The translations under genes and the position numbers were made by a program. A stretch of DNA of 64,000 nt, from the sequence record MN895435.1. The stretch is one strand, 5' to 3'. This document shows, piece by piece, positions 8,724-59,229 of the stretch. The DNA is from Escherichia phage teqhal. Below the pieces are notes generated by a model. It saw only the letters and a list, made by a program, of their open reading frames with translations, did no database searches and had not been told where the DNA came from. Each line of letters opens with the position of its first letter. Positions within the stretch are counted from its first letter, which is position 1.

Positions 8724-9281
8724 ATGCAGAAAACGAATCCGGGTTTACAGAGACTATTTCAGATTCCGACATTTACCCTATCGAACAGTGACTTGACTAG
8801 TGAAATGAAGGTCAAAATTGCTGATACAGCAAGATACTCTTTAAAACAAAATCCAAATCAGGATAAGGCAGAAGTTATCGAAAGATGCCGTATCGCTGTG
8901 TACGCAGAGTTTTTTGTGGCAGATTGGCTAAGCGGATATGTCAATAAAGGCCAAGAAGATGTCGATGATCCGTACACATATGCATGGGATGTTTTAGCAC
9001 ATCCAAAATACTGTGGGCTCCGTGTAGAAGTTAAGACACATCAAACTGACTCGCGTTGGATTTCGGTAACAACGGGATGCAGCGGAGAGTATCCATATGG
9101 TTCTGGAATAAATCTAGGGCCCATTCTAAATCATCAAGTCGCGGACTGTATAATTATATTCAACACTAAAGAAATTCATCCAGGTGTCATCCAGTACACT
9201 CCGAAGTTCATTGGTGATAGAGAAGACCTTCGTAAGGTTGTAAGAAAAAGCAACTACAACGGCTGGTATCTTTCCATTTAA
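8724..9281 (+). CDS. denB: endonuclease IV (cytosine-DNA-specific ssDNA endonuclease)
   Basis: 185 aa, the T4 DenB length; adjacent to rIIB as in T4; AAGGAAAG RBS. Confidence 0.65.
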   Translation: MQKTNPGLQRLFQIPTFTLSNSDLTSEMKVKIADTARYSLKQNPNQDKAEVIERCRIAVYAEFFVADWLSGYVNKGQEDVDDPYTYAWDVLAHPKYCGLRVEVKTHQTDSRWISVTTGCSGEYPYGSGINLGPILNHQVADCIIIFNTKEIHPGVIQYTPKFIGDREDLRKVVRKSNYNGWYLSI

Positions 9282-9297
9282 AAATTTTCACAAAACG

Positions 9298-9328
9298 GTT
9301 TACATACCACAAGGACCGTGGTATTATA
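9298..9328 (+). promoter_or_regulatory. early (sigma70-type) promoter
   Basis: -35 GTTTACA, TG-extended -10 TGGTATTAT, A/T-rich upstream; followed by conserved leader ACTATCAACTACTGATAC. Confidence 0.5.
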
Positions 9329-9364
9329 CAACTATCAACTACTGATACGGATTTGGAGAATAAA

Positions 9365-9628
9365 ATGAAATTTAAATTTTATTACGCTAAACATAAAATA
9401 ACTGATGAGTTTGTGTCAGTTGAATATTCTAGCGATGATGAAGGTATGATTTATACTCGCTTGGGACTATCGCATTGGGAGTCTGATACGCCTTATTTTT
9501 CAACTCCCGAAGAAATTACACGCTTAGTTAATGGTCATATGAATGACCACTGGAATGTAATTCTTTCAGATAGTCTTAAAGCAGCTATTAATAGTAATGA
9601 AATGAAAATCGCTGAGATTGAGCTATGA
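9365..9628 (+). CDS. hypothetical protein, 87 aa
   Basis: ATG preceded by GGAGAATAAA leader. Confidence 0.5.
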   Translation: MKFKFYYAKHKITDEFVSVEYSSDDEGMIYTRLGLSHWESDTPYFSTPEEITRLVNGHMNDHWNVILSDSLKAAINSNEMKIAEIEL

Positions 9629-9711
9629 GTTCACTATGGTGGTGTTTTGTTTGGTTAATTAGTATTCCAGTAATTTGTTTAACATTTACTTTTGTAATGA
9701 GGTTATTATGA
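9625..9711 (+). CDS. tiny hydrophobic peptide, 28 aa
   Basis: ATGA overlap with upstream stop; sequence MSSLWWCFVWLISIPVICLTFTFVMRLL. Confidence 0.25.
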   Translation: MSSLWWCFVWLISIPVICLTFTFVMRLL

Positions 9712-9806
9712 AAATTTTGAATTCTGTACTTATTGCTTGTGCGTGGTGGGTTGCACAGGTTTCAGCGGTAGTAGTTGGTATTCACATTTATTACGAATAT
9801 TTTTAA
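9708..9806 (+). CDS. tiny hydrophobic peptide, 32 aa
   Basis: ATGA overlap with upstream stop; single predicted transmembrane helix. Confidence 0.25.
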   Translation: MKILNSVLIACAWWVAQVSAVVVGIHIYYEYF

Positions 9807-9871
9807 AAAAGTTGTTTACAGGACTGTTCTTCCGTGGTACTATTACCCTATCAACTACGGAGGAACAGAAA

Positions 9872-9985
9872 ATGAAAAAGATTGTTAAAGCTATATGGAA
9901 TGTAGTTATAATACTAATAGTTTTGAGTATATTCCCAATCGTTTTAATGATTGATATGTTAAACGCTTATTTTGGATTTATGTGA
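9872..9985 (+). CDS. small membrane peptide, 37 aa
   Basis: GGAGGAACAGAAAATG RBS; one transmembrane helix (track ORF 9737 extends upstream without an RBS). Confidence 0.35.
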   Translation: MKKIVKAIWNVVIILIVLSIFPIVLMIDMLNAYFGFM

Positions 9986-9992
9986 GGAAAAT

Positions 9993-10190
9993 ATGAAGCG
10001 TAAACGCAGTGCTTTTACATTTATTGAATGGTTTTTCGATAATATTTTTCCGGCTTTATTCATTTTCATGCTTATTTTTGCCTTGGGTTCAGTTGTAGTT
10101 GGAATCTATTTGATGACAGTAGTCGGAATTGATATTCATCAAAATGGTTTAAAATCTGTGGTTGAAACAATTTGGAATGGTGTAAAATAA
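9993..10190 (+). CDS. small membrane protein, 65 aa
   Basis: GAGGAAAATATG RBS; basic N-terminus then hydrophobic helices. Confidence 0.4.
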   Translation: MKRKRSAFTFIEWFFDNIFPALFIFMLIFALGSVVVGIYLMTVVGIDIHQNGLKSVVETIWNGVK

Positions 10191-10297
10191 TGAATTTACT
10201 AAACATTTGGTTTTATATTCTTATGTTTTACATTGGTGCAAATTTTCCATATTGGATGGGATGGTCAACAACTGCATTCGGATTTTATACTCCTTGA
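10190..10297 (+). CDS. tiny hydrophobic peptide, 35 aa
   Basis: Start overlaps previous stop (TAATG); aromatic-rich hydrophobic sequence. Confidence 0.25.
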   Translation: MNLLNIWFYILMFYIGANFPYWMGWSTTAFGFYTP

Positions 10298-10305
10298 GGT
10301 GAATT

Positions 10306-10521
10306 ATGAAAATTTTTAAAGATGTAAAAGTTGGTGAAATTTTTTGTTTAGATAATGGTGATCAGTTAATTCGCATTTCACCTCTTAAGAGCACTAGCGA
10401 AAAAATGACAGTTAATGCTACTTTAGCAAACAATAGTAATGAACGTTTCTGTATTGAAAATGATACTGAAACTTATACCGTAGAAGAGTTTTGGGAATTG
10501 AGCGTCGACTGCGACGATTAA
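10306..10521 (+). CDS. hypothetical protein, 71 aa
   Basis: ORF with GAGGTGAATTATG RBS. Confidence 0.5.
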   Translation: MKIFKDVKVGEIFCLDNGDQLIRISPLKSTSEKMTVNATLANNSNERFCIENDTETYTVEEFWELSVDCDD

Positions 10522-10581
10522 TTTAATGGCCGCGTGTATTCATGCGGCCTTGGAGTAGAAAATAATTTAGAGGAAATTAAT

Positions 10582-11040
10582 ATGAAATATATGACTGTTA
10601 CTGATCTAAATGATGCAGGCGCTACTGTTATTGGTACAATCAAGGGTGGTGAATGGTTTTTAGGAACTCCGCATAAAGATATTTTATCTAAACCTGGATT
10701 TTACTTTTTAGTAAGTAAATTAGATGGTCGTCCATTTAGTAATCCATGTGTGTCTGCACGATTTTATGTAGGTAATCAGCGTTCTAAGCAAGGATTCAGT
10801 GCAGTTCTAAGTCATATTCGTCAACGTCGGTCTCAGCTTGCACGTACTATTGCAAATAACAATATGGTATACACAGTATTTTATCTGCCTGCTTCTAAGA
10901 TGAAACCTCTGACGACAGGATTTGGTAAAGGTCAGTTAGCTTTGGCGTTTACCCGTAATCATCATTCCGAGTATCAAACACTTGAAGAAATGAACCGTAT
11001 GTTGGCTGATAACTTTAAATTCGTTTTGCAGGCATATTAA
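10582..11040 (+). CDS. ndd: nucleoid disruption protein
   Basis: 152 aa from ATG at 10582 with AGGAAA RBS (track start 10534 is GTG); sequence [26 protein letters not shown] matches recalled T4 Ndd; followed by stp and ac as in T4. Confidence 0.8.
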
Positions 11041-11120
11041 TGAGTAATTTCCACAACGAACACGTGATGCAGTTCTATCGTAATAATCTTAAAACTAAAG
11101 GCGTCTTCGGACGCCAGTGA
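11040..11120 (+). CDS. stp: Stp peptide (26 aa; modulates the host EcoprrI/PrrC anticodon-nuclease system)
   Basis: [26 protein letters not shown]; ATG overlaps the ndd stop (TAATG); not in ORF track because under 60 aa. Confidence 0.8.
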
Positions 11121-11127
11121 GGAAAAT

Positions 11128-11286
11128 ATGAATATTGCAAAATTATTAGGAGTTATTTCATTTATTTGTTGGATAGTAGCATGTGTTTTAACTATCTGTA
11201 TCGATGCTAGCAGTGTGTTTTCGCAAGCTTTAGCTCAGGGTATGTGTGCATATTTAACATTTGTGTTGTTATCTACTAATGATTAA
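11128..11286 (+). CDS. ac: acriflavine-resistance small membrane protein
   Basis: 52 aa hydrophobic, Cys-rich peptide (T4 Ac is about 51 aa) in the T4 position between stp and gene 52. Confidence 0.6.
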   Translation: MNIAKLLGVISFICWIVACVLTICIDASSVFSQALAQGMCAYLTFVLLSTND

Positions 11287-11419
11287 GAAAATCTTGGGCT
11301 ATTCATTAGCCCTTGCTACTTTATTAGTAGCACTATATTATGGAGTAATGTTCGGATTGATTCAAGTCGTGCTTTTCATTTCTGATGTTATTATGGCACT
11401 ACATTCACTAGTATGGTAA
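11279..11419 (+). CDS. small membrane peptide, 46 aa (52.1-like position)
   Basis: Overlaps ac stop; hydrophobic. Confidence 0.3.
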   Translation: MIKKILGYSLALATLLVALYYGVMFGLIQVVLFISDVIMALHSLVW

Positions 11420-11423
11420 ATTT

Positions 11424-12752
11424 ATGCAACTGAATAATCGCGATTTAAAAAGTATCATTGATAATGAAGCATTGGCTTATGCTATGTACACGGTTGAAAA
11501 TCGTGCTATTCCAAATATGATTGATGGATTTAAGCCAGTTCAACGATTTGTTATTGCTCGAGCTCTTGATTTGGCACGAGGAAATAAAGATAAGTTTCAC
11601 AAACTTGCTTCTATTGCAGGTGGTGTAGCGGACCTTGGATATCACCATGGTGAAAACTCTGCACAAGATGCAGGGGCTTTGATGGCTAATACTTGGAATA
11701 ATAACTTTCCTTTGTTAGATGGTCAAGGAAACTTCGGTTCTCGTACTGTCCAAAAGGCAGCAGCTAGTCGTTATATTTTTGCTCGTGTAAGTAAAAATTT
11801 CTATAACGTATATAAAGATACTGAATATGCTCCAGTACATCAAGATAAAGAACACATTCCGCCTGCTTTCTATTTGCCTATTATTCCTACTGTTCTTCTT
11901 AATGGTGTTTCCGGTATTGCAACTGGTTATGCAACTTACATTCTTCCTCATAGTGTTTCTTCTGTCAAGAAAGCTGTACTGCAAGCTCTTCAAGGAAAGA
12001 AAGTAACTAAACCGAAGGTAGAATTCCCAGAATTTCGTGGTGAAGTCGTTGAGATTGATGGGCAATATGAAATTCGTGGAACATACAAGTTTACTTCACG
12101 AACTCAAATGCATATCACTGAGATTCCGTATAAGTATGATCGTGAAACTTATGTGAGTAAAATCTTAGACCCACTTGAAGATAAAGGCTTCATTACGTGG
12201 GATGATGCTTGTGGTGAGCATGGCTTTGGCTTTAAAGTTAAATTCCGTAAAGAATATTCTTTGAGCGATAATGAAGAAGAACGCCATGCAAAAATTATGA
12301 AAGACTTCGGGTTGATTGAGCGTCGTTCCCAAAATATTACCGTTATTAATGAGAAAGGAAAGCTACAAGTTTACGATAACGTAGTTGATTTAATCAAAGA
12401 CTTCGTTGAAGTTCGTAAAACTTATGTCCAAAAACGAATTGATAACAAAATCAAAGAAACTGAATCAGCATTTCGTTTAGCCTTTGCCAAGGCGCATTTC
12501 ATTAAGAAAGTAATTTCAGGTGAAATTGTTGTACAGGGTAAAACTCGTAAAGAACTGACCGAAGAACTTTCTAAAATTGAGATGTATTCTTCTTATGTTG
12601 ATAAACTAGTTGGAATGAATATTTTTCATATGACTTCTGATGAAGCAAAGAAACTTGCTGAAGAAGCTAAAGCTAAAAAAGAAGAAAACGAATATTGGAA
12701 AACTACTGATGTAGTTACAGAATACACTAAAGATTTAGAGGAAATCAAATGA
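11424..12752 (+). CDS. 52: DNA topoisomerase II medium (GyrA-like) subunit
   Basis: 442 aa, the T4 gp52 length; N-terminal region AYAMYTVENRAIPNMIDGFKPVQRFVIARAL is the type II topoisomerase A-subunit motif. Confidence 0.9.
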   Translation: MQLNNRDLKSIIDNEALAYAMYTVENRAIPNMIDGFKPVQRFVIARALDLARGNKDKFHKLASIAGGVADLGYHHGENSAQDAGALMANTWNNNFPLLDGQGNFGSRTVQKAAASRYIFARVSKNFYNVYKDTEYAPVHQDKEHIPPAFYLPIIPTVLLNGVSGIATGYATYILPHSVSSVKKAVLQALQGKKVTKPKVEFPEFRGEVVEIDGQYEIRGTYKFTSRTQMHITEIPYKYDRETYVSKILDPLEDKGFITWDDACGEHGFGFKVKFRKEYSLSDNEEERHAKIMKDFGLIERRSQNITVINEKGKLQVYDNVVDLIKDFVEVRKTYVQKRIDNKIKETESAFRLAFAKAHFIKKVISGEIVVQGKTRKELTEELSKIEMYSSYVDKLVGMNIFHMTSDEAKKLAEEAKAKKEENEYWKTTDVVTEYTKDLEEIK

Positions 12753-12898
12753 GTCCATTCATTGGTATTACAAGCGCTGCATTAGTATCTGGCGGCATTT
12801 TACTAGCGGGGGTAGGTGTTGTTCCAGCCGTAGCAGGAGGTCTTCTTGCGTTCGGCATTCAACGTGTTATCATGACAGTTATCACAGTCATGCAGTAA
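12749..12898 (+). CDS. small membrane peptide, 49 aa
   Basis: ATGA overlap with the gene 52 stop; glycine/alanine-rich hydrophobic peptide. Confidence 0.35.
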   Translation: MSPFIGITSAALVSGGILLAGVGVVPAVAGGLLAFGIQRVIMTVITVMQ

Positions 12899-57456: not shown

Positions 57457-59229
57457 TTAATTAACTCCAGTCGCATCAAATACACCAGGAGCAGTCGTGC
57501 TCGTTACGGGTGTCATATTATGAACGACAGTATTTTTCTTAATAACATTATTAGTATTATTGATCGAAGGAGATGCTTGTTGAACAGGAGCTTGCTGTGC
57601 TTTATTCTTTTCTATTACCTGGACTTGTTTTGCTTCTGGTGATTTAGCAGAAGTTTCAGGTTTGGCATTAGGCTGATTTTTCTTGAGCTCTTGATAAGTA
57701 GCATCAATTTTAGAAAATCTAGCAGCAAGTTCTTTTTTAACTGCCGGTGAATTATTTAAATCCGGGTCATCCATTCGTTTTTTAAGGTCTTCATAGGCAG
57801 CTTCAACTGATTTAACCGTTGAGTCTTTACTCATATCAGCTGAATCAGCATATTTTTCAAAACGAATCATCGCGGCACGTGCTTCATTAGCCTTCATTAA
57901 AGCATTTTTTCTTTCTTCAGGTGAAAGCTGCTTTAATTTTTCTTCTTCTGCTGCACGTTCTTCGTCGGTAGTTAGTGCTTCTTTATTATCAACCCCACGA
58001 ATCCAATTAGATGCACGAGTTTTCCAATTAGCAATTTTATCTAATCCTTTTGCTATCGGACCAAGGTCTCCATTCATTCGTTTATCTTGATAATTTGCAA
58101 CTTTTTCTTGGTCTTCTTTATTGAGAGATGCTCCAGTAGAATTTTGGAAATTTTCCAATGCTCTTCCTTCTACTTCATCAGCGGTATCCTTCATACCAGG
58201 AATGACTCGAAGAATTGCAGCAGATAATTTAGCCATACCTAATTGAATAAGCTCTCCTAAATTAAAAAGAACACTTCCGAGTCCTTCTACGATAGCTGCT
58301 GTCAATCCACCCCAATCTCCCGCTTCCCAAAGTTGTTTAATTTTATCAATAGAATCAAAGATGCTCTGTAATAAAGGACCCCAAGTTCCGGTTTCGCTAG
58401 AGAATTTAGTAAAGTCAGTATTAAATAAATCCCAGGCTTTTGAAAATTTATCTGACCAATATTTAAAGTGAACCATCAGCAGATCTATTCCAACAACAAC
58501 AGCCAATATCATTGCAGTCATTTTAGCGGCTTCAATAGCAGCACTGATGGTGTACTTAAATAACATGCTTGATATTTTATCACTAATTGAAATGGATTTC
58601 TTAAATCCAAAATCAACAGTCTTTGTTAATTTATCTAAAGCTTGAGATAATTTTAAGTTAAATGCTTCTTTTTTCTGTTTTTCTTCTGGCGATTCTTGTT
58701 TGGGTTCAACTGGTTGAGGGGTAGGGAAAAAATCAGCGTCAGGATCATTATTAACTGCTTCGGGAGCCGGTAATAAAGGACCCACAGATTCAGCGGTATC
58801 ATCCTCAACGACTTTAACAGGAATAGCGCTTTCAACCGTGGCTAAACTAGTTCCAGTCTGTTGAATTCCAGCTGTCTGAATTTTTTGCTCTAGTAAACTT
58901 GTTAATTTATCTAATTTGCTTCCGAGCGATTCGCCGATTTCTTTATTAATATTATTGCCAATTTCGACAGTTTCAGCAATTAACTCAGAACCAGCAGTAG
59001 TATCACTCACTGCGCTTTCTACATTGTCAATTGCTCCAATTATTTCATTCGATTTTTCTTCGACAGTTTGAGCAATTAATTCAGAAGCAGCTTGAGCATC
59101 ATCCAATTTCGTAGATATATCGTTAAGTCCAGATAAAGTATTAGAAGCGGATTTAGCCGCTTCCTGTGTTGGTTTATTATCTGAAATAACTTTTCTACGC
59201 ATCGTTTGCATTTCTTGTGGCTTTTTCAT
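57457..59229 (-). CDS. 29: tail length tape-measure / baseplate hub protein gp29
   Basis: 590 aa, the T4 gp29 length; low-complexity helical regions. Confidence 0.85.
   Translation of the reverse strand: MKKPQEMQTMRRKVISDNKPTQEAAKSASNTLSGLNDISTKLDDAQAASELIAQTVEEKSNEIIGAIDNVESAVSDTTAGSELIAETVEIGNNINKEIGESLGSKLDKLTSLLEQKIQTAGIQQTGTSLATVESAIPVKVVEDDTAESVGPLLPAPEAVNNDPDADFFPTPQPVEPKQESPEEKQKKEAFNLKLSQALDKLTKTVDFGFKKSISISDKISSMLFKYTISAAIEAAKMTAMILAVVVGIDLLMVHFKYWSDKFSKAWDLFNTDFTKFSSETGTWGPLLQSIFDSIDKIKQLWEAGDWGGLTAAIVEGLGSVLFNLGELIQLGMAKLSAAILRVIPGMKDTADEVEGRALENFQNSTGASLNKEDQEKVANYQDKRMNGDLGPIAKGLDKIANWKTRASNWIRGVDNKEALTTDEERAAEEEKLKQLSPEERKNALMKANEARAAMIRFEKYADSADMSKDSTVKSVEAAYEDLKKRMDDPDLNNSPAVKKELAARFSKIDATYQELKKNQPNAKPETSAKSPEAKQVQVIEKNKAQQAPVQQASPSINNTNNVIKKNTVVHNMTPVTSTTAPGVFDATGVN

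Follow-up and report, generated by a model that had tools for sequence, protein, structure and literature searches.

Five small genes between denB and ndd of Escherichia phage teqhal, identified as orthologues of T4 ndd.2 to ndd.6

Introduction

More than 100 small early genes of phage T4 still lack a function, and no class escapes proteomics and gene callers more often than tiny membrane peptides. Several T4 products, namely Imm, Sp, Ac, 52.1 and MotA.1, are small, early and non-essential, and are predicted or known to reside in the host envelope. Among bacterial proteins, AcrZ, MgrB and MgtS, as well as Hok, TisB and Ibs, have 20-65 residues and a single helix, and bind larger membrane proteins or perturb the membrane.

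The closest described genes are the T4 set ndd.2 to ndd.6. RNA-seq of T4 puts them in the early class (PMC9697503 Table S2), and time-resolved T4 proteomics saw the ndd.1 protein early and recorded no peptide of ndd.2-ndd.6 (Class_P = NA) (PMC9697503). All five were scored 'Not Fit' by CRISPRi-ART (PMC11879866). HIDEN-SEQ classes T4 ndd.2 to ndd.6 as non-essential and flags the ndd.3 orthologue of Bas37 as 'reduced fitness' (bioRxiv 10.1101/2025.11.20.689424). The saDelta9 deletion, which takes out the whole region, is viable with a yield of ~50% (PMC6071114).

Results

The window analysed here, a stretch of 64,000 nucleotides from Escherichia phage teqhal (MN895435.1), belongs to Tequatrovirus, with 98.5% identity to vB_Eco_NR1 and a DNA identity to T4 of 96.7% across the aligned part. 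A preliminary description of this DNA had drawn attention to five tiny ORFs (28-65 aa) between denB and ndd, and they are present exactly where it placed them: five plus-strand ORFs of 28, 32, 37, 65 and 35 codons lie at positions 9625-10297, between denB and ndd. The features of the locus are as follows:

9299..9327, plus strand: T4-type early promoter 1, TTTACA-17-TATTAT with a TG-extended -10; precedes orf87, ndd.6 and ndd.5
9365..9628, plus strand: orf87, soluble 87-aa protein (PHROG 2390); heads the coupled trio
9625-9711, plus strand: ndd.6 orthologue, 28-aa single-helix peptide MSSLWWCFVWLISIPVICLTFTFVMRLL (PHROG 8851, E=1.6e-17)
9708-9806, plus strand: ndd.5 orthologue, 32-aa single-helix peptide MKILNSVLIACAWWVAQVSAVVVGIHIYYEYF (PHROG 5011, E=3.6e-26)
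9815..9843, plus strand: T4-type early promoter 2, TTTACA-17-TACTAT, TG-extended; precedes ndd.4, ndd.3, ndd.2 and ndd.1
9872-9985, plus strand: ndd.4 orthologue, 37 aa (PHROG 3098, E=1.3e-20); the peptide quoted in the preliminary description
9993-10190, plus strand: ndd.3 (ndd.3 plus ndd.2a of reference T4), 65-aa DUF7248 protein (Pfam DUF7248; PHROG 2401, E=3.5e-29)
10140..10187, plus strand: conserved DUF7248 tail motif QNGLKSVVETIWNGVK from the alignment of 23 homologues, probably periplasmic
10190-10297, plus strand: ndd.2 orthologue, 35-aa uncharged peptide, 34% aromatic (PHROG 4135, E=3.1e-23)
10306..10521, plus strand: ndd.1, soluble 71-aa protein, the last small gene before ndd; context only, outside the five

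The five ORFs match the T4 annotation gene by gene (ndd.6, ndd.5, ndd.4, ndd.3 together with ndd.2a, and ndd.2). T4 (AF158101; T4T, HM137666) and the window agree in gene order, overlaps and upstream early-promoter sequences, and their peptides are near-identical; the genes also occupy the same place, on the early strand with denB and ndd on either side, and 19 other Tequatrovirus loci have the same layout. PHROG profiles matched five of five peptides, all with full-length coverage, and NCBIfam and PDB sequence searches with the ndd.x peptides returned no match. Judged by layout and profile matches, the ORFs are orthologues of T4 ndd.6, ndd.5, ndd.4, ndd.3/ndd.2a and ndd.2, genes that are already known. 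The ORFs do not lack annotation: T4 lists them by name, and both PHROGs and Pfam hold families for them. In the literature search, 'ndd.2a' was absent from main texts, and ndd.4 was named alongside phage in a single paper. An RNA element in place of genes was also considered, and was dropped since Rfam returned no match at E<=1 for positions 9000-11200.

The window contains 11 matches to the PeSL/T4 early promoter consensus TTTACW-N17-TAYWAT (PMC4122927), every one on the plus strand, versus 0.24 expected. One promoter-like site lies in the 65-nt gap that separates ORFs 2 and 3. The genes are predicted to form two early transcription units, with promoter 1 serving orf87, ndd.6 and ndd.5, and promoter 2 serving ndd.4, ndd.3, ndd.2 and ndd.1; this arrangement is strongly supported. 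Within the first unit, the three genes are chained through ATGA overlaps. Its leading gene orf87 (87 codons), which the preliminary description did not mention, sits upstream of ORF 1, and its stop overlaps the ndd.6 start. It is intact in the window and missing from reference T4, which keeps an 8-codon remnant. Its pN/pS is 0.43 in Tequatrovirus, where the alleles are mosaic, and 0.05 in Mosigvirus.

Peptides were regarded as transmembrane-like when their best 19-residue Kyte-Doolittle window reached the usual threshold of 1.6. Of 296 ORFs of 25-70 codons that start with ATG, counted over the six frames of the whole window, 70 reach this value. Since a transmembrane-like profile arises by chance in 24% of the small ORFs of this AT-rich window, hydrophobicity proves nothing by itself, and we rejected it as a sign of function. 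The five ORFs themselves do exceed chance, because they fill a gap that has no other genes, are preceded by ribosome-binding or coupling signals, and are kept by purifying selection. Every start has a Shine-Dalgarno site or coupling: ndd.5 has GAGG 6 nt upstream and an ATGA overlap with the ndd.6 stop, ndd.4 has GGAGGA 8 nt upstream, and the ndd.2 start overlaps the ndd.3 stop as TAATG.

The preliminary description had treated these as small genes of a phage early region, and had listed conservation and dN/dS across T4-like genomes among its checks; frames that are not conserved in related phages, which it named as refuting evidence, are not what is seen. The ORFs are intact in ~500 Tequatrovirus genomes, and each is intact in 18-20 of the 20 that were sampled (ndd.6 in 19, ndd.5 and ndd.4 in all 20). 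By tblastn, ndd.6 was found in 493 phage records, ndd.2 in 500 and ndd.4 in 595, with 100 of the last at <60% identity. The ndd.5 peptide gave no tblastn match, presumably owing to the low-complexity filter, as its DNA is present in ~500 records. In the Tequatrovirus sample, pN/pS is 0.11 for ndd.6, 0.14 for ndd.5, 0.09 for ndd.3 and 0.13 for ndd.2, on a par with ndd.1 (0.07), and the variable sites of ndd.3 are distributed 4/4/23 over the three codon positions. Nearly all alternative frames give values of ~1 or more, the exception being one ndd.6 frame (0.65). The ratio for ndd.4 (1.07) is uninformative within the genus, as it rests on just 7 variable sites. Compared with Dhakavirus, ndd.4 has 21 of 36 residues unchanged and its nucleotide differences fall 11/5/20 on the three codon positions, and over the comparisons with Dhakavirus and Gaprivervirus 21-22 of 36-37 residues are kept, with change biased to third positions.

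Conservation extends beyond the genus, with the ndd.6, ndd.4 and ndd.3 families also present in other Tevenvirinae genera, where the peptide sequence is kept while synonymous sites change. Mosigvirus possesses a 28-aa ndd.6 homologue with the same ATGA coupling, and this gene and the ORF that follows it are intact (pN/pS 0.15 and 0.22). It is strongly supported that the five ORFs are real protein-coding genes under purifying selection. Translation is inferred rather than shown, because proteomics missed the ndd.2-ndd.6 peptides, as is to be expected of tiny, very hydrophobic products with few tryptic sites.

The best Kyte-Doolittle windows of ndd.6, ndd.5, ndd.4 and ndd.3 (2.33, 2.17, 2.94 and 2.71) are clearly transmembrane-like. 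The ndd.2 window scores 1.29, under the usual threshold, and this score, together with the absence of any charged residue and the aromatic content of 34%, makes its helix borderline. The single transmembrane helix that had been predicted for each peptide can thus be retained for four of them and is marginal for ndd.2. On these profiles, the products are most likely single-pass inner-membrane micro-proteins, predicted to be made within the first minutes of infection. Their Lys/Arg-rich N-termini indicate that ndd.4 and ndd.3 should adopt an N-in/C-out orientation, a predicted topology that would expose the short aromatic tail of ndd.4 and a 16-20 residue invariant helix of ndd.3 to the periplasm.

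T4 GenBank entries label ndd.2, ndd.5 and ndd.6 as lipoprotein or outer-membrane protein. These labels look like legacy predictions. With only 28-35 residues, none of the three could form a beta-barrel, and ndd.2 and ndd.6 contain no lipobox. Residues 8-11 of ndd.5 (L-I-A-C) fit the lipobox pattern; only 10 residues precede the cysteine and the remainder is again hydrophobic, and a signal segment as short as this makes the lipoprotein assignment doubtful.

The ATG that starts ndd.4 in reference T4, 5 codons upstream, reads ACG in the window, and ndd.4 must therefore start 5 codons after the reference T4 annotation; T4T annotates the same 37-codon form. The peptide consists of a Lys-rich N-terminus, one transmembrane helix and an aromatic C-tail. 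Its immediate downstream neighbour is DUF7248 in Tequatrovirus, Gaprivervirus and Jiaodavirus, as well as in an unclassified T4-like contig of 175 kb, and from this recurrent adjacency ndd.4 and DUF7248 are taken to be a gene pair conserved across genera.

The DUF7248 member of this pair, ndd.3, scored 68.1 bits against the Pfam profile, above the gathering cut-off of 27. It has a basic N-terminus, an amphipathic helix, a transmembrane helix and a conserved C-terminal tail, and the AlphaFold2 model (pLDDT 80.6) consists of a short amphipathic helix (residues 3-17) followed by one long helix (residues 19-64). Only the original T4 sequence entries show the split into ndd.3 and ndd.2a, and re-sequenced T4 stocks carry a single 65-codon gene; by this comparison, ndd.3 and ndd.2a are one gene and the split is a legacy annotation error. 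The PHROG 2401 label 'periplasmic protein' stems from an old localisation prediction made on the truncated T4 ndd.2a. As a member of DUF7248/PHROG 2401, ndd.3 shares the architecture of the family, a short N-terminus, one transmembrane helix and a tail of the form G-L-K-x-V-V-E-x-I-W-x-G. In the 23 aligned homologues G52, K54, W61 and G63 are invariant and L53 is almost so, and the transmembrane segments are not conserved.

A homologue search with the 65-aa protein gave 8 clusters only, and DUF7248 homologues were therefore collected from an exhaustive profile search of 1.84 billion proteins. The sole matches outside the small-protein family were tape-measure proteins, two of four with PhageMin_Tail. 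Single units of the tandem repeats in these siphophage proteins, such as WNGVKTVVETVWNG, NGIKNVIETIWNG and GMKSVVETIWQG, are close to the ndd.3 tail NGLKSVVETIWNG, and these repeats, too, follow hydrophobic membrane-like segments. The tape-measure proteins have 5-13 units, whereas ndd.3 has one unit in 65 aa and no tandem array. The likeness covers a single amphipathic unit of 13-16 residues and may be convergent.

Discussion

Our analysis reveals no new element; the genes are known and ordinary. That ndd.2-ndd.6 are individually dispensable on laboratory hosts is strongly supported, and the knock-down and transposon screens showed no phenotype on the hosts and defence systems tested. Not every phage keeps the full set intact: G45* truncates ndd.3 in T2, an in-frame deletion removes 72 nt of ndd.2 in TB004, ndd.4, ndd.3 and ndd.2 are absent from Mosigvirus, and ndd.3 is absent from Dhakavirus, so that whatever function the genes have must be conditional. 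The host-takeover and superinfection-exclusion roles suggested in the preliminary description are guesses.

We consider it reasonably probable that the best explanation of the locus is a set of orthologues of T4 ndd.2-ndd.6 that encode early inner-membrane micro-proteins acting as accessory envelope modulators, with ndd.4 and ndd.3 as a pair. Through their transmembrane helix and tail, the peptides would bind membrane proteins, whether of host origin or belonging to a competing element, and would alter inner-membrane events during takeover, serving neither as enzymes nor as structural parts. The ndd.4 and ndd.3 products would act together, and the functional determinant of ndd.3 would be its tethered tail motif, not its transmembrane sequence. 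The ndd.x peptides are phage-encoded and early and have no homology to AcrZ, MgrB, MgtS, Hok, TisB or Ibs; by analogy, these bacterial proteins may guide ideas on how the peptides work, with no family assignment implied. Nor is there detectable sequence similarity to T4 Imm, Sp, Ac, 52.1 or MotA.1, of which the last three have their genes a short way downstream in this window and equal the ndd.x peptides in hydrophobicity, and no exclusion or acridine phenotype is assigned to the ndd.x genes. A holin or antiholin role was rejected: no window peptide matched a holin family, one distant DUF7248 homologue gave a sub-threshold BlyA match (17.4 vs 27 bits), and the genes are early and far from the lysis genes.

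Among the other explanations, it seems unlikely that the peptides neutralise membrane-associated systems for abortive infection or exclusion carried by particular hosts or prophages. The neighbouring rIIA and rIIB counter RexAB, and the five genes sit in a hyperplastic accessory region adjoining rIIB and stp, two genes with links to host-defence interplay. The genes are patchy across genera, non-essential on K-12, and placed in a locus susceptible to cassette exchange mediated by PeSL (PMC4122927). They have no homology to known anti-defence proteins, however, and the HIDEN-SEQ conditional screens, so far as the available text goes, single out no ndd.x gene, and the per-condition rows examined show no effect (q = 1.0). 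It is rather more doubtful that the T4-specific stimulation of phosphatidylglycerol (PG) and phospholipid synthesis after infection is due to at least one of the peptides, which could act on a host lipid-synthesis enzyme or provoke an envelope response through bulk insertion. The stimulation is abolished by saDelta9 (52.1, ac, stp, ndd, ndd.1-ndd.6, denB) and its PG-specific part is likewise lost in the partly overlapping rIIDeltaDD2 deletion (PMC6071114); the responsible gene was never mapped, several products of the region being predicted membrane proteins according to the authors (PMC6071114 section 8), and the five peptides are predicted early inner-membrane residents. Against this, ac and 52.1, which also encode small membrane proteins, and denB are among the 12 or more genes of the interval, no particular ndd.x gene has been tied to the phenotype, and the peptides show no similarity to lipid-metabolism proteins. 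Host toxicity is distinctly improbable, although size, hydrophobicity and early timing agree with peptides that contribute to early host shut-off in the manner of type I toxins, the short hydrophobic peptides of bacteria that perturb the inner membrane or depolarise it. Cloning many of the small immediate-early genes of T4 proved lethal to the host (PMC6071114). The ndd.x peptides lack similarity to toxin families, and specific recognition, more than generic membrane damage, is suggested by the extramembrane motif conserved in ndd.3 and by the conservation of both termini of ndd.4.

The tape-measure resemblance raises the idea that the ndd.3 tail, with ndd.4, mimics a tape-measure repeat and, without involving Imm or Sp, would stop a superinfecting phage at its channel-forming step. 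Tape-measure proteins are, as noted, the only profile matches beyond the small-protein family, and SNIPE offers an example of a membrane protein that engages tape-measure proteins at the inner membrane (PMC13190303). This decoy idea was downgraded because the repeat occurs overwhelmingly in phages of Gram-positive hosts (Mycobacterium, Lactococcus, Staphylococcus, Streptococcus), not in coliphages competing with T4, and because the T4 tape measure gp29 lacks the motif. Moreover, no Pfam family named as a TMP repeat matched the 65-aa protein at E<=1, and Pfam, NCBIfam and PHROG scans at the same threshold found no exclusion-protein family. With a likeness limited to one short and perhaps convergent unit, we regard such interference with genome entry as highly improbable. 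A reading in which the peptides have no function is more improbable still, and already disfavoured: the ORFs would be AT-rich chance ORFs, or translated spacers or uORFs that set ndd.1 and ndd expression by coupling. It draws on the chance background of hydrophobic ORFs, on the chaining through overlapping stops and starts, on the missing proteomic peptides, and on individual dispensability. It is opposed by third-position-biased variation with pN/pS of ~0.1 in the annotated frames and not in the alternatives, by amino acids conserved across genera despite high DNA divergence, by the ORF length and coupling retained in Mosigvirus, and by profile families that span many phages.

For the preferred reading of the peptides as accessory envelope modulators, DUF7248 with its partner ndd.4 stands out, as its sharply conserved extramembrane motif provides an experimental handle. 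All five ORFs are firmed up as selected peptides, and the ndd.3/ndd.2a annotation error is cleared. There is a slim chance that an ndd.4/ndd.3 inner-membrane module with a tape-measure-like tail interferes with the genome-entry machinery of other phages, or with a host factor or defence that recognises the motif, or else that the peptides are the unmapped PG-stimulation factor. If true, the module would exclude phages or counter defences on a principle other than that of Imm and Sp, and finding a role in exclusion, counter-defence or lipid remodelling would close a gap of long standing in the T4 'D region'.

Organization and identity of the cluster

Five tiny open reading frames lie between denB and ndd, all on the plus strand, and a reading of the window from 9000 to 11500 showed the positions and the peptide quoted in the preliminary description to be correct. 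The features of the locus are as follows.

8724-9281, + strand: denB, the gene upstream of the cluster
9299-9327, + strand: sigma-70-type promoter match with a TG-extended -10
9365-9628, + strand: orf87, 87 codons
9625-9711, + strand: ORF1 (ndd.6), 28 aa
9708-9806, + strand: ORF2 (ndd.5), 32 aa
9815-9843, + strand: sigma-70-type promoter match with a TG-extended -10
9872-9985, + strand: ORF3 (ndd.4), 37 aa
9993-10190, + strand: ORF4 (ndd.3), 65 aa
10190-10297, + strand: ORF5 (ndd.2), 35 aa
10306-10521, + strand: ndd.1
10582-11040, + strand: ndd, followed by stp, ac, 52.1 and gene 52

ORF1 overlaps both orf87 and ORF2 as ATGA, ORF4 and ORF5 meet as TAATG, and GAGG or GGAGGA stands 5-8 nt before the start codons of ORFs 2, 3 and 4. 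Both promoter matches fit TTTACW-N17-TAYWAT, the early-promoter (PeSL) consensus for the T4/PST pair (Comeau et al., PMC4122927). This pattern has 11 exact matches in the window, all on the plus strand (at 737, 5023, 9299, 9815, 12956, 15421, 26290, 26818, 30119, 31111 and 42514), against 0.24 expected by chance. The same paper, the sole match among the main texts searched for ndd.4 together with phage, gives ndd.4/.5 as an example of T4/PST cassette exchange.

The stretch matches 504 phage records, nearly all Tequatrovirus; its identity to Escherichia phage vB_Eco_NR1 is 98.5%, and T4 is 96.7% identical over the aligned part. For this interval T4 is annotated with ndd.6 (28 aa), ndd.5 (32), ndd.4 (42), ndd.3 (26), ndd.2a (40), ndd.2 (36) and ndd.1. 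A PHROG family was found full-length for each of the five window peptides (E 1e-17 to 1e-29), and Pfam DUF7248 was assigned to the 65-aa protein (68.1 bits; cut-off 27), while NCBIfam, Rfam and PDB sequence searches of the cluster added nothing. Given the T4 annotation and these family matches, the five ORFs are a rediscovery of annotated, function-unassigned genes, already covered by published genome-wide screens. The additions made here are modest: selection statistics, the ndd.4-DUF7248 pairing, a tail motif, and a correction of ndd.3/ndd.2a that is already implicit in the T4T record.

Hydrophobicity of the peptides

A single transmembrane (TM) helix had been predicted for each peptide. This holds for four of the five, whose best Kyte-Doolittle scores are 2.2-2.9, and is borderline for ndd.2, which scores 1.29, has no charged residues and is 34% aromatic. 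With a 19-residue Kyte-Doolittle window of ≥1.6 as the threshold, 70 of the 296 ATG-ORFs of 25-70 codons in the six frames of the whole window (24%) are TM-like, and many of these fall out of frame inside real genes. Calls of hydrophobic small ORFs from raw sequence thus carry a high false-positive rate in this genome; the hydrophobicity of the cluster is not beyond chance, and conservation is the real test.

Further small hydrophobic genes lie just downstream, namely ac (52 aa, 11128-11286), 52.1 (46 aa, 11279-11419) and motA.1 (49 aa, 12749-12898), giving eight predicted small membrane peptides over the 3.3 kb from ndd.6 to motA.1. Residues 8-11 of ndd.5, L-I-A-C, fit the lipobox pattern (window 9708-9740), and the cysteine, Cys11, does not vary among the sampled genomes. 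Lipoprotein processing seems unlikely, since the segment before Cys11 has only 10 residues; the lipobox-like L-I-A-C may lie behind the legacy label 'outer membrane protein'.

Conservation and selection

The window was aligned with 19 other Tequatrovirus loci of 88-98% identity, giving 20 in all.

Frame conservation and within-Tequatrovirus variation (variable sites by codon position 1/2/3)
ndd.6: intact in 19/20 (exception, a 2-nt insertion near the end); sites 2/1/5; pN/pS 0.11
ndd.5: intact in 20/20; sites 1/2/8; pN/pS 0.14
ndd.4: intact in 20/20; 7 variable sites, ratio 1.07, too few to judge selection
ndd.3: intact in 18/20 (exceptions, the reference T4 frameshift and T2 G45*); sites 4/4/23; pN/pS 0.09
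ndd.2: intact in 19/20 (exception, an in-frame 72-nt deletion in TB004); sites 5/3/12; pN/pS 0.13

For comparison, ndd.1 has a pN/pS of 0.07 within Tequatrovirus, and in alternative frames the ratio is about 1 or higher nearly everywhere, the exception being 0.65 in one ndd.6 frame. For ndd.4 the informative comparisons are across genera: 21/36 residues are kept in Dhakavirus C6 and 22/37 in Gaprivervirus SP18, with nucleotide differences by codon position of 11/5/20 and 14/4/21, respectively, and the codons differ at roughly one in two of the identical residues. A tblastn search with ndd.4 returned 595 records, 100 of them at <60% identity; ndd.6, ndd.3 and ndd.2 returned 493, 494 and 500. 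Mosigvirus retains the ATGA overlaps between orf87, a 28-aa ndd.6 homologue with 14/28 identical residues, and another hydrophobic ORF, of 36 aa; all three are intact in five genomes, and the latter two have pN/pS values of 0.15 and 0.22.

From the intact frames, the pN/pS values and the cross-genus conservation of the peptides, we conclude that all five ORFs are selected as peptides. The genes ndd.3, ndd.2 and ndd.5 have the strongest evidence; that for ndd.4, from the cross-genus comparison, is good, and that for ndd.6 is thinner. Loss of the frames in related phages had been named as grounds for refutation; they are kept in 18-20 of the 20 Tequatrovirus loci and, for ndd.6, ndd.4 and ndd.3, in other genera.

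Differences from the T4 reference and cassette turnover

T4 AF158101 lacks one base just 3' of the ATG of the 65-codon ORF (window 9993-10190; 1957-2153 in the T4 reference locus, L001), which splits it into 'ndd.3' and 'ndd.2a'. A 131-nt query over the split site matched exactly only X75802, AF158101 and NC_000866; all other records contain one extra base, so that 132 nt are aligned, and the gene is intact in about 490 relatives. The extra base is also present in the re-sequenced T4 stocks OZ209023, OZ209057, T4T HM137666 and KJ477684/5. A single 198-nt CDS is annotated in OZ209023 and T4T, the latter naming it ndd.3 and having no ndd.2a, and the 82-nt ndd.3 of the T4 annotation used in HIDEN-SEQ (bioRxiv 10.1101/2025.11.20.689424) is consistent with the same base. 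T4 ndd.3 is a singleton in PHROGs, as expected of a frameshift product. Because it is limited to three records and the re-sequenced stocks are intact, the split most likely reflects an error in the original T4 sequence, or a mutation private to it, and not biology. The start codon of reference T4's ndd.4 is ACG in the window; the conserved form, also annotated in T4T, has 37 codons with GGAGGA upstream.

As a swappable cassette, orf87 is carried by this phage and by most relatives, with two or three divergent alleles among them. It is missing from T4, where an 8-codon remnant, MKIAEIEL, still overlaps ndd.6 as ATGA (L001 1560-1590), and in T2 and RB27 (L021/L022) an unrelated 68-codon gene takes its place. 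The DUF7248 gene of T2 (MH751506) has the premature stop G45*, and phage ELT1 (P0004) has the same 44-aa truncated product; laboratory or isolated phages thus show at least two independent disruptions of the gene. Natural in-frame chimeras ending in the DUF7248 tail occur in Shigella phage Sf25 (P0007) and T4 variant MZ375356 (P0008), one with the N-terminus of ndd.4 and one with that of ndd.5. The junction of the ndd.5 chimera is the shared VVVG (SAVVVGI in ndd.5, GSVVVGI in ndd.3), which suggests that the chimeras may be deletions by microhomology between TM-coding segments. One Gaprivervirus-like genome (L029, from IMG/VR) carries a 62-codon Cys/His-containing ORF between ndd.4 and the DUF7248 gene (2736-2924), a further sign of cassette turnover within the cluster.

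The tail of the ndd.3 protein

For the 65-aa protein, a five-sequence profile was searched against 1.84 billion representative proteins (E≤1e-3) and gave 27 matches, 23 small (25-76 aa) and four large (820-976 aa). The full-length small matches have a short, often basic N-terminus, then one TM helix of unconserved sequence, then a tail with the pattern [I/V]-x-x-x-G-L-K-S-[VI]-[VI]-E-x-[IV]-W-x-G, in which G52, K54, W61 and G63 never vary and L53 hardly varies. With a variable anchor and an invariant tail, the working part is likely to be the tail, and the KRKR N-terminus of ndd.3 and the positive-inside rule would place the tail in the periplasm. For ndd.3, AlphaFold2 predicts helices at 3-17 and 19-64 with a kink near Pro20 (mean pLDDT 80.6).

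An ndd.4-type gene directly precedes the DUF7248 gene in Tequatrovirus, Gaprivervirus SP18, Jiaodavirus UTI-K1 and a 175-kb T4-like contig, and in a second Gaprivervirus-like genome one ORF separates the two. DUF7248 is missing from Dhakavirus, which does have ndd.4, and both are missing from Mosigvirus.

In all four large matches the hit comes from the tail positions of the profile, which recur 5-10 times, with units such as WNGVKTVVETVWNG, NGIKNVIETIWNG, WNGLKSIVDTIWGG and GMKSVVETIWQG against the window tail NGLKSVVETIWNG (10140-10187). Two contain a PhageMin_Tail domain and are thus tape-measure proteins, and a degenerate tail-motif scan of IMG/VR also matched tail proteins of 1400-1500 aa. 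The repeat is tandem, W-containing and mostly found in phages of Gram-positive hosts (proteins P0012, P0016, P0020, P0025; loci L032, L034, L036, L038). The resemblance is striking, but we would give it little weight: the great majority of relatives of these tape-measure proteins belong to phages of hosts such as Mycobacterium, Lactococcus, Staphylococcus and Streptococcus, the motif is absent from T4 gp29 (57460-59229, - strand) and from the rest of the window besides ndd.3, and the DUF7248 tail is a single short amphipathic unit, whereas tape-measure proteins carry tandem arrays.

Expression, fitness and possible function

Transcripts of ndd.2, 2a, 3, 4, 5 and 6 belong to the early class; their proteins were undetected, and Ndd and Ndd.1 were detected early (Wolfram-Schauerte et al., PMC9697503 Table S2). 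CRISPRi-ART scored all six genes 'Not Fit' (PMC11879866). In the HIDEN-SEQ preprint, insertions hit almost every TA site in each of these T4 genes, which were called non-essential; in Bas37 (KarlGJung, L012), laid out as the window, so were the orthologues except bas37_0104, that of ndd.3, with 'reduced fitness' and 11/14 sites hit (bioRxiv 10.1101/2025.11.20.689424). In the main-text passages drawn on here, none of these genes is singled out in the conditional screens, and the per-condition rows consulted contain no effect for them.

The observation of five tiny ORFs stands. Its interpretation is borne out in part: selection marks them as genuine coding genes, but they are not new or unannotated, as T4 lists all of them. 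The selection pattern (pN/pS, frames) lies in the annotated frames, which disfavours a reading of them as chance ORFs or as spacers that serve only for coupling. Stimulation of lipid synthesis by the peptides has a low probability. With the saDelta9 deletion, which spans 52.1 through denB including ndd.1-ndd.6 and about halves the burst, phospholipid and phosphatidylglycerol (PG) synthesis is no longer stimulated after infection, and rIIDeltaDD2, which partly overlaps it, loses the PG-specific stimulation; the responsible gene is unmapped (Kutter et al., PMC6071114). Each of the other specific roles for the peptides, whether in counter-defence, in excluding other phages or as generic membrane toxins, likewise has a low probability.

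It is well supported that the five ORFs are conserved coding genes arranged in two early units, that T4 transcribes them early and that each can be dispensed with individually. Each peptide would be a micro-protein spanning the inner membrane once; ndd.4 and ndd.3 would act together, N-in and C-out, with ndd.3 acting through its tethered tail. By analogy with bacterial small membrane proteins, our best guess is that the peptides may serve as accessory modulators, binding membrane proteins of the host (or of a competitor) at an early stage of infection.
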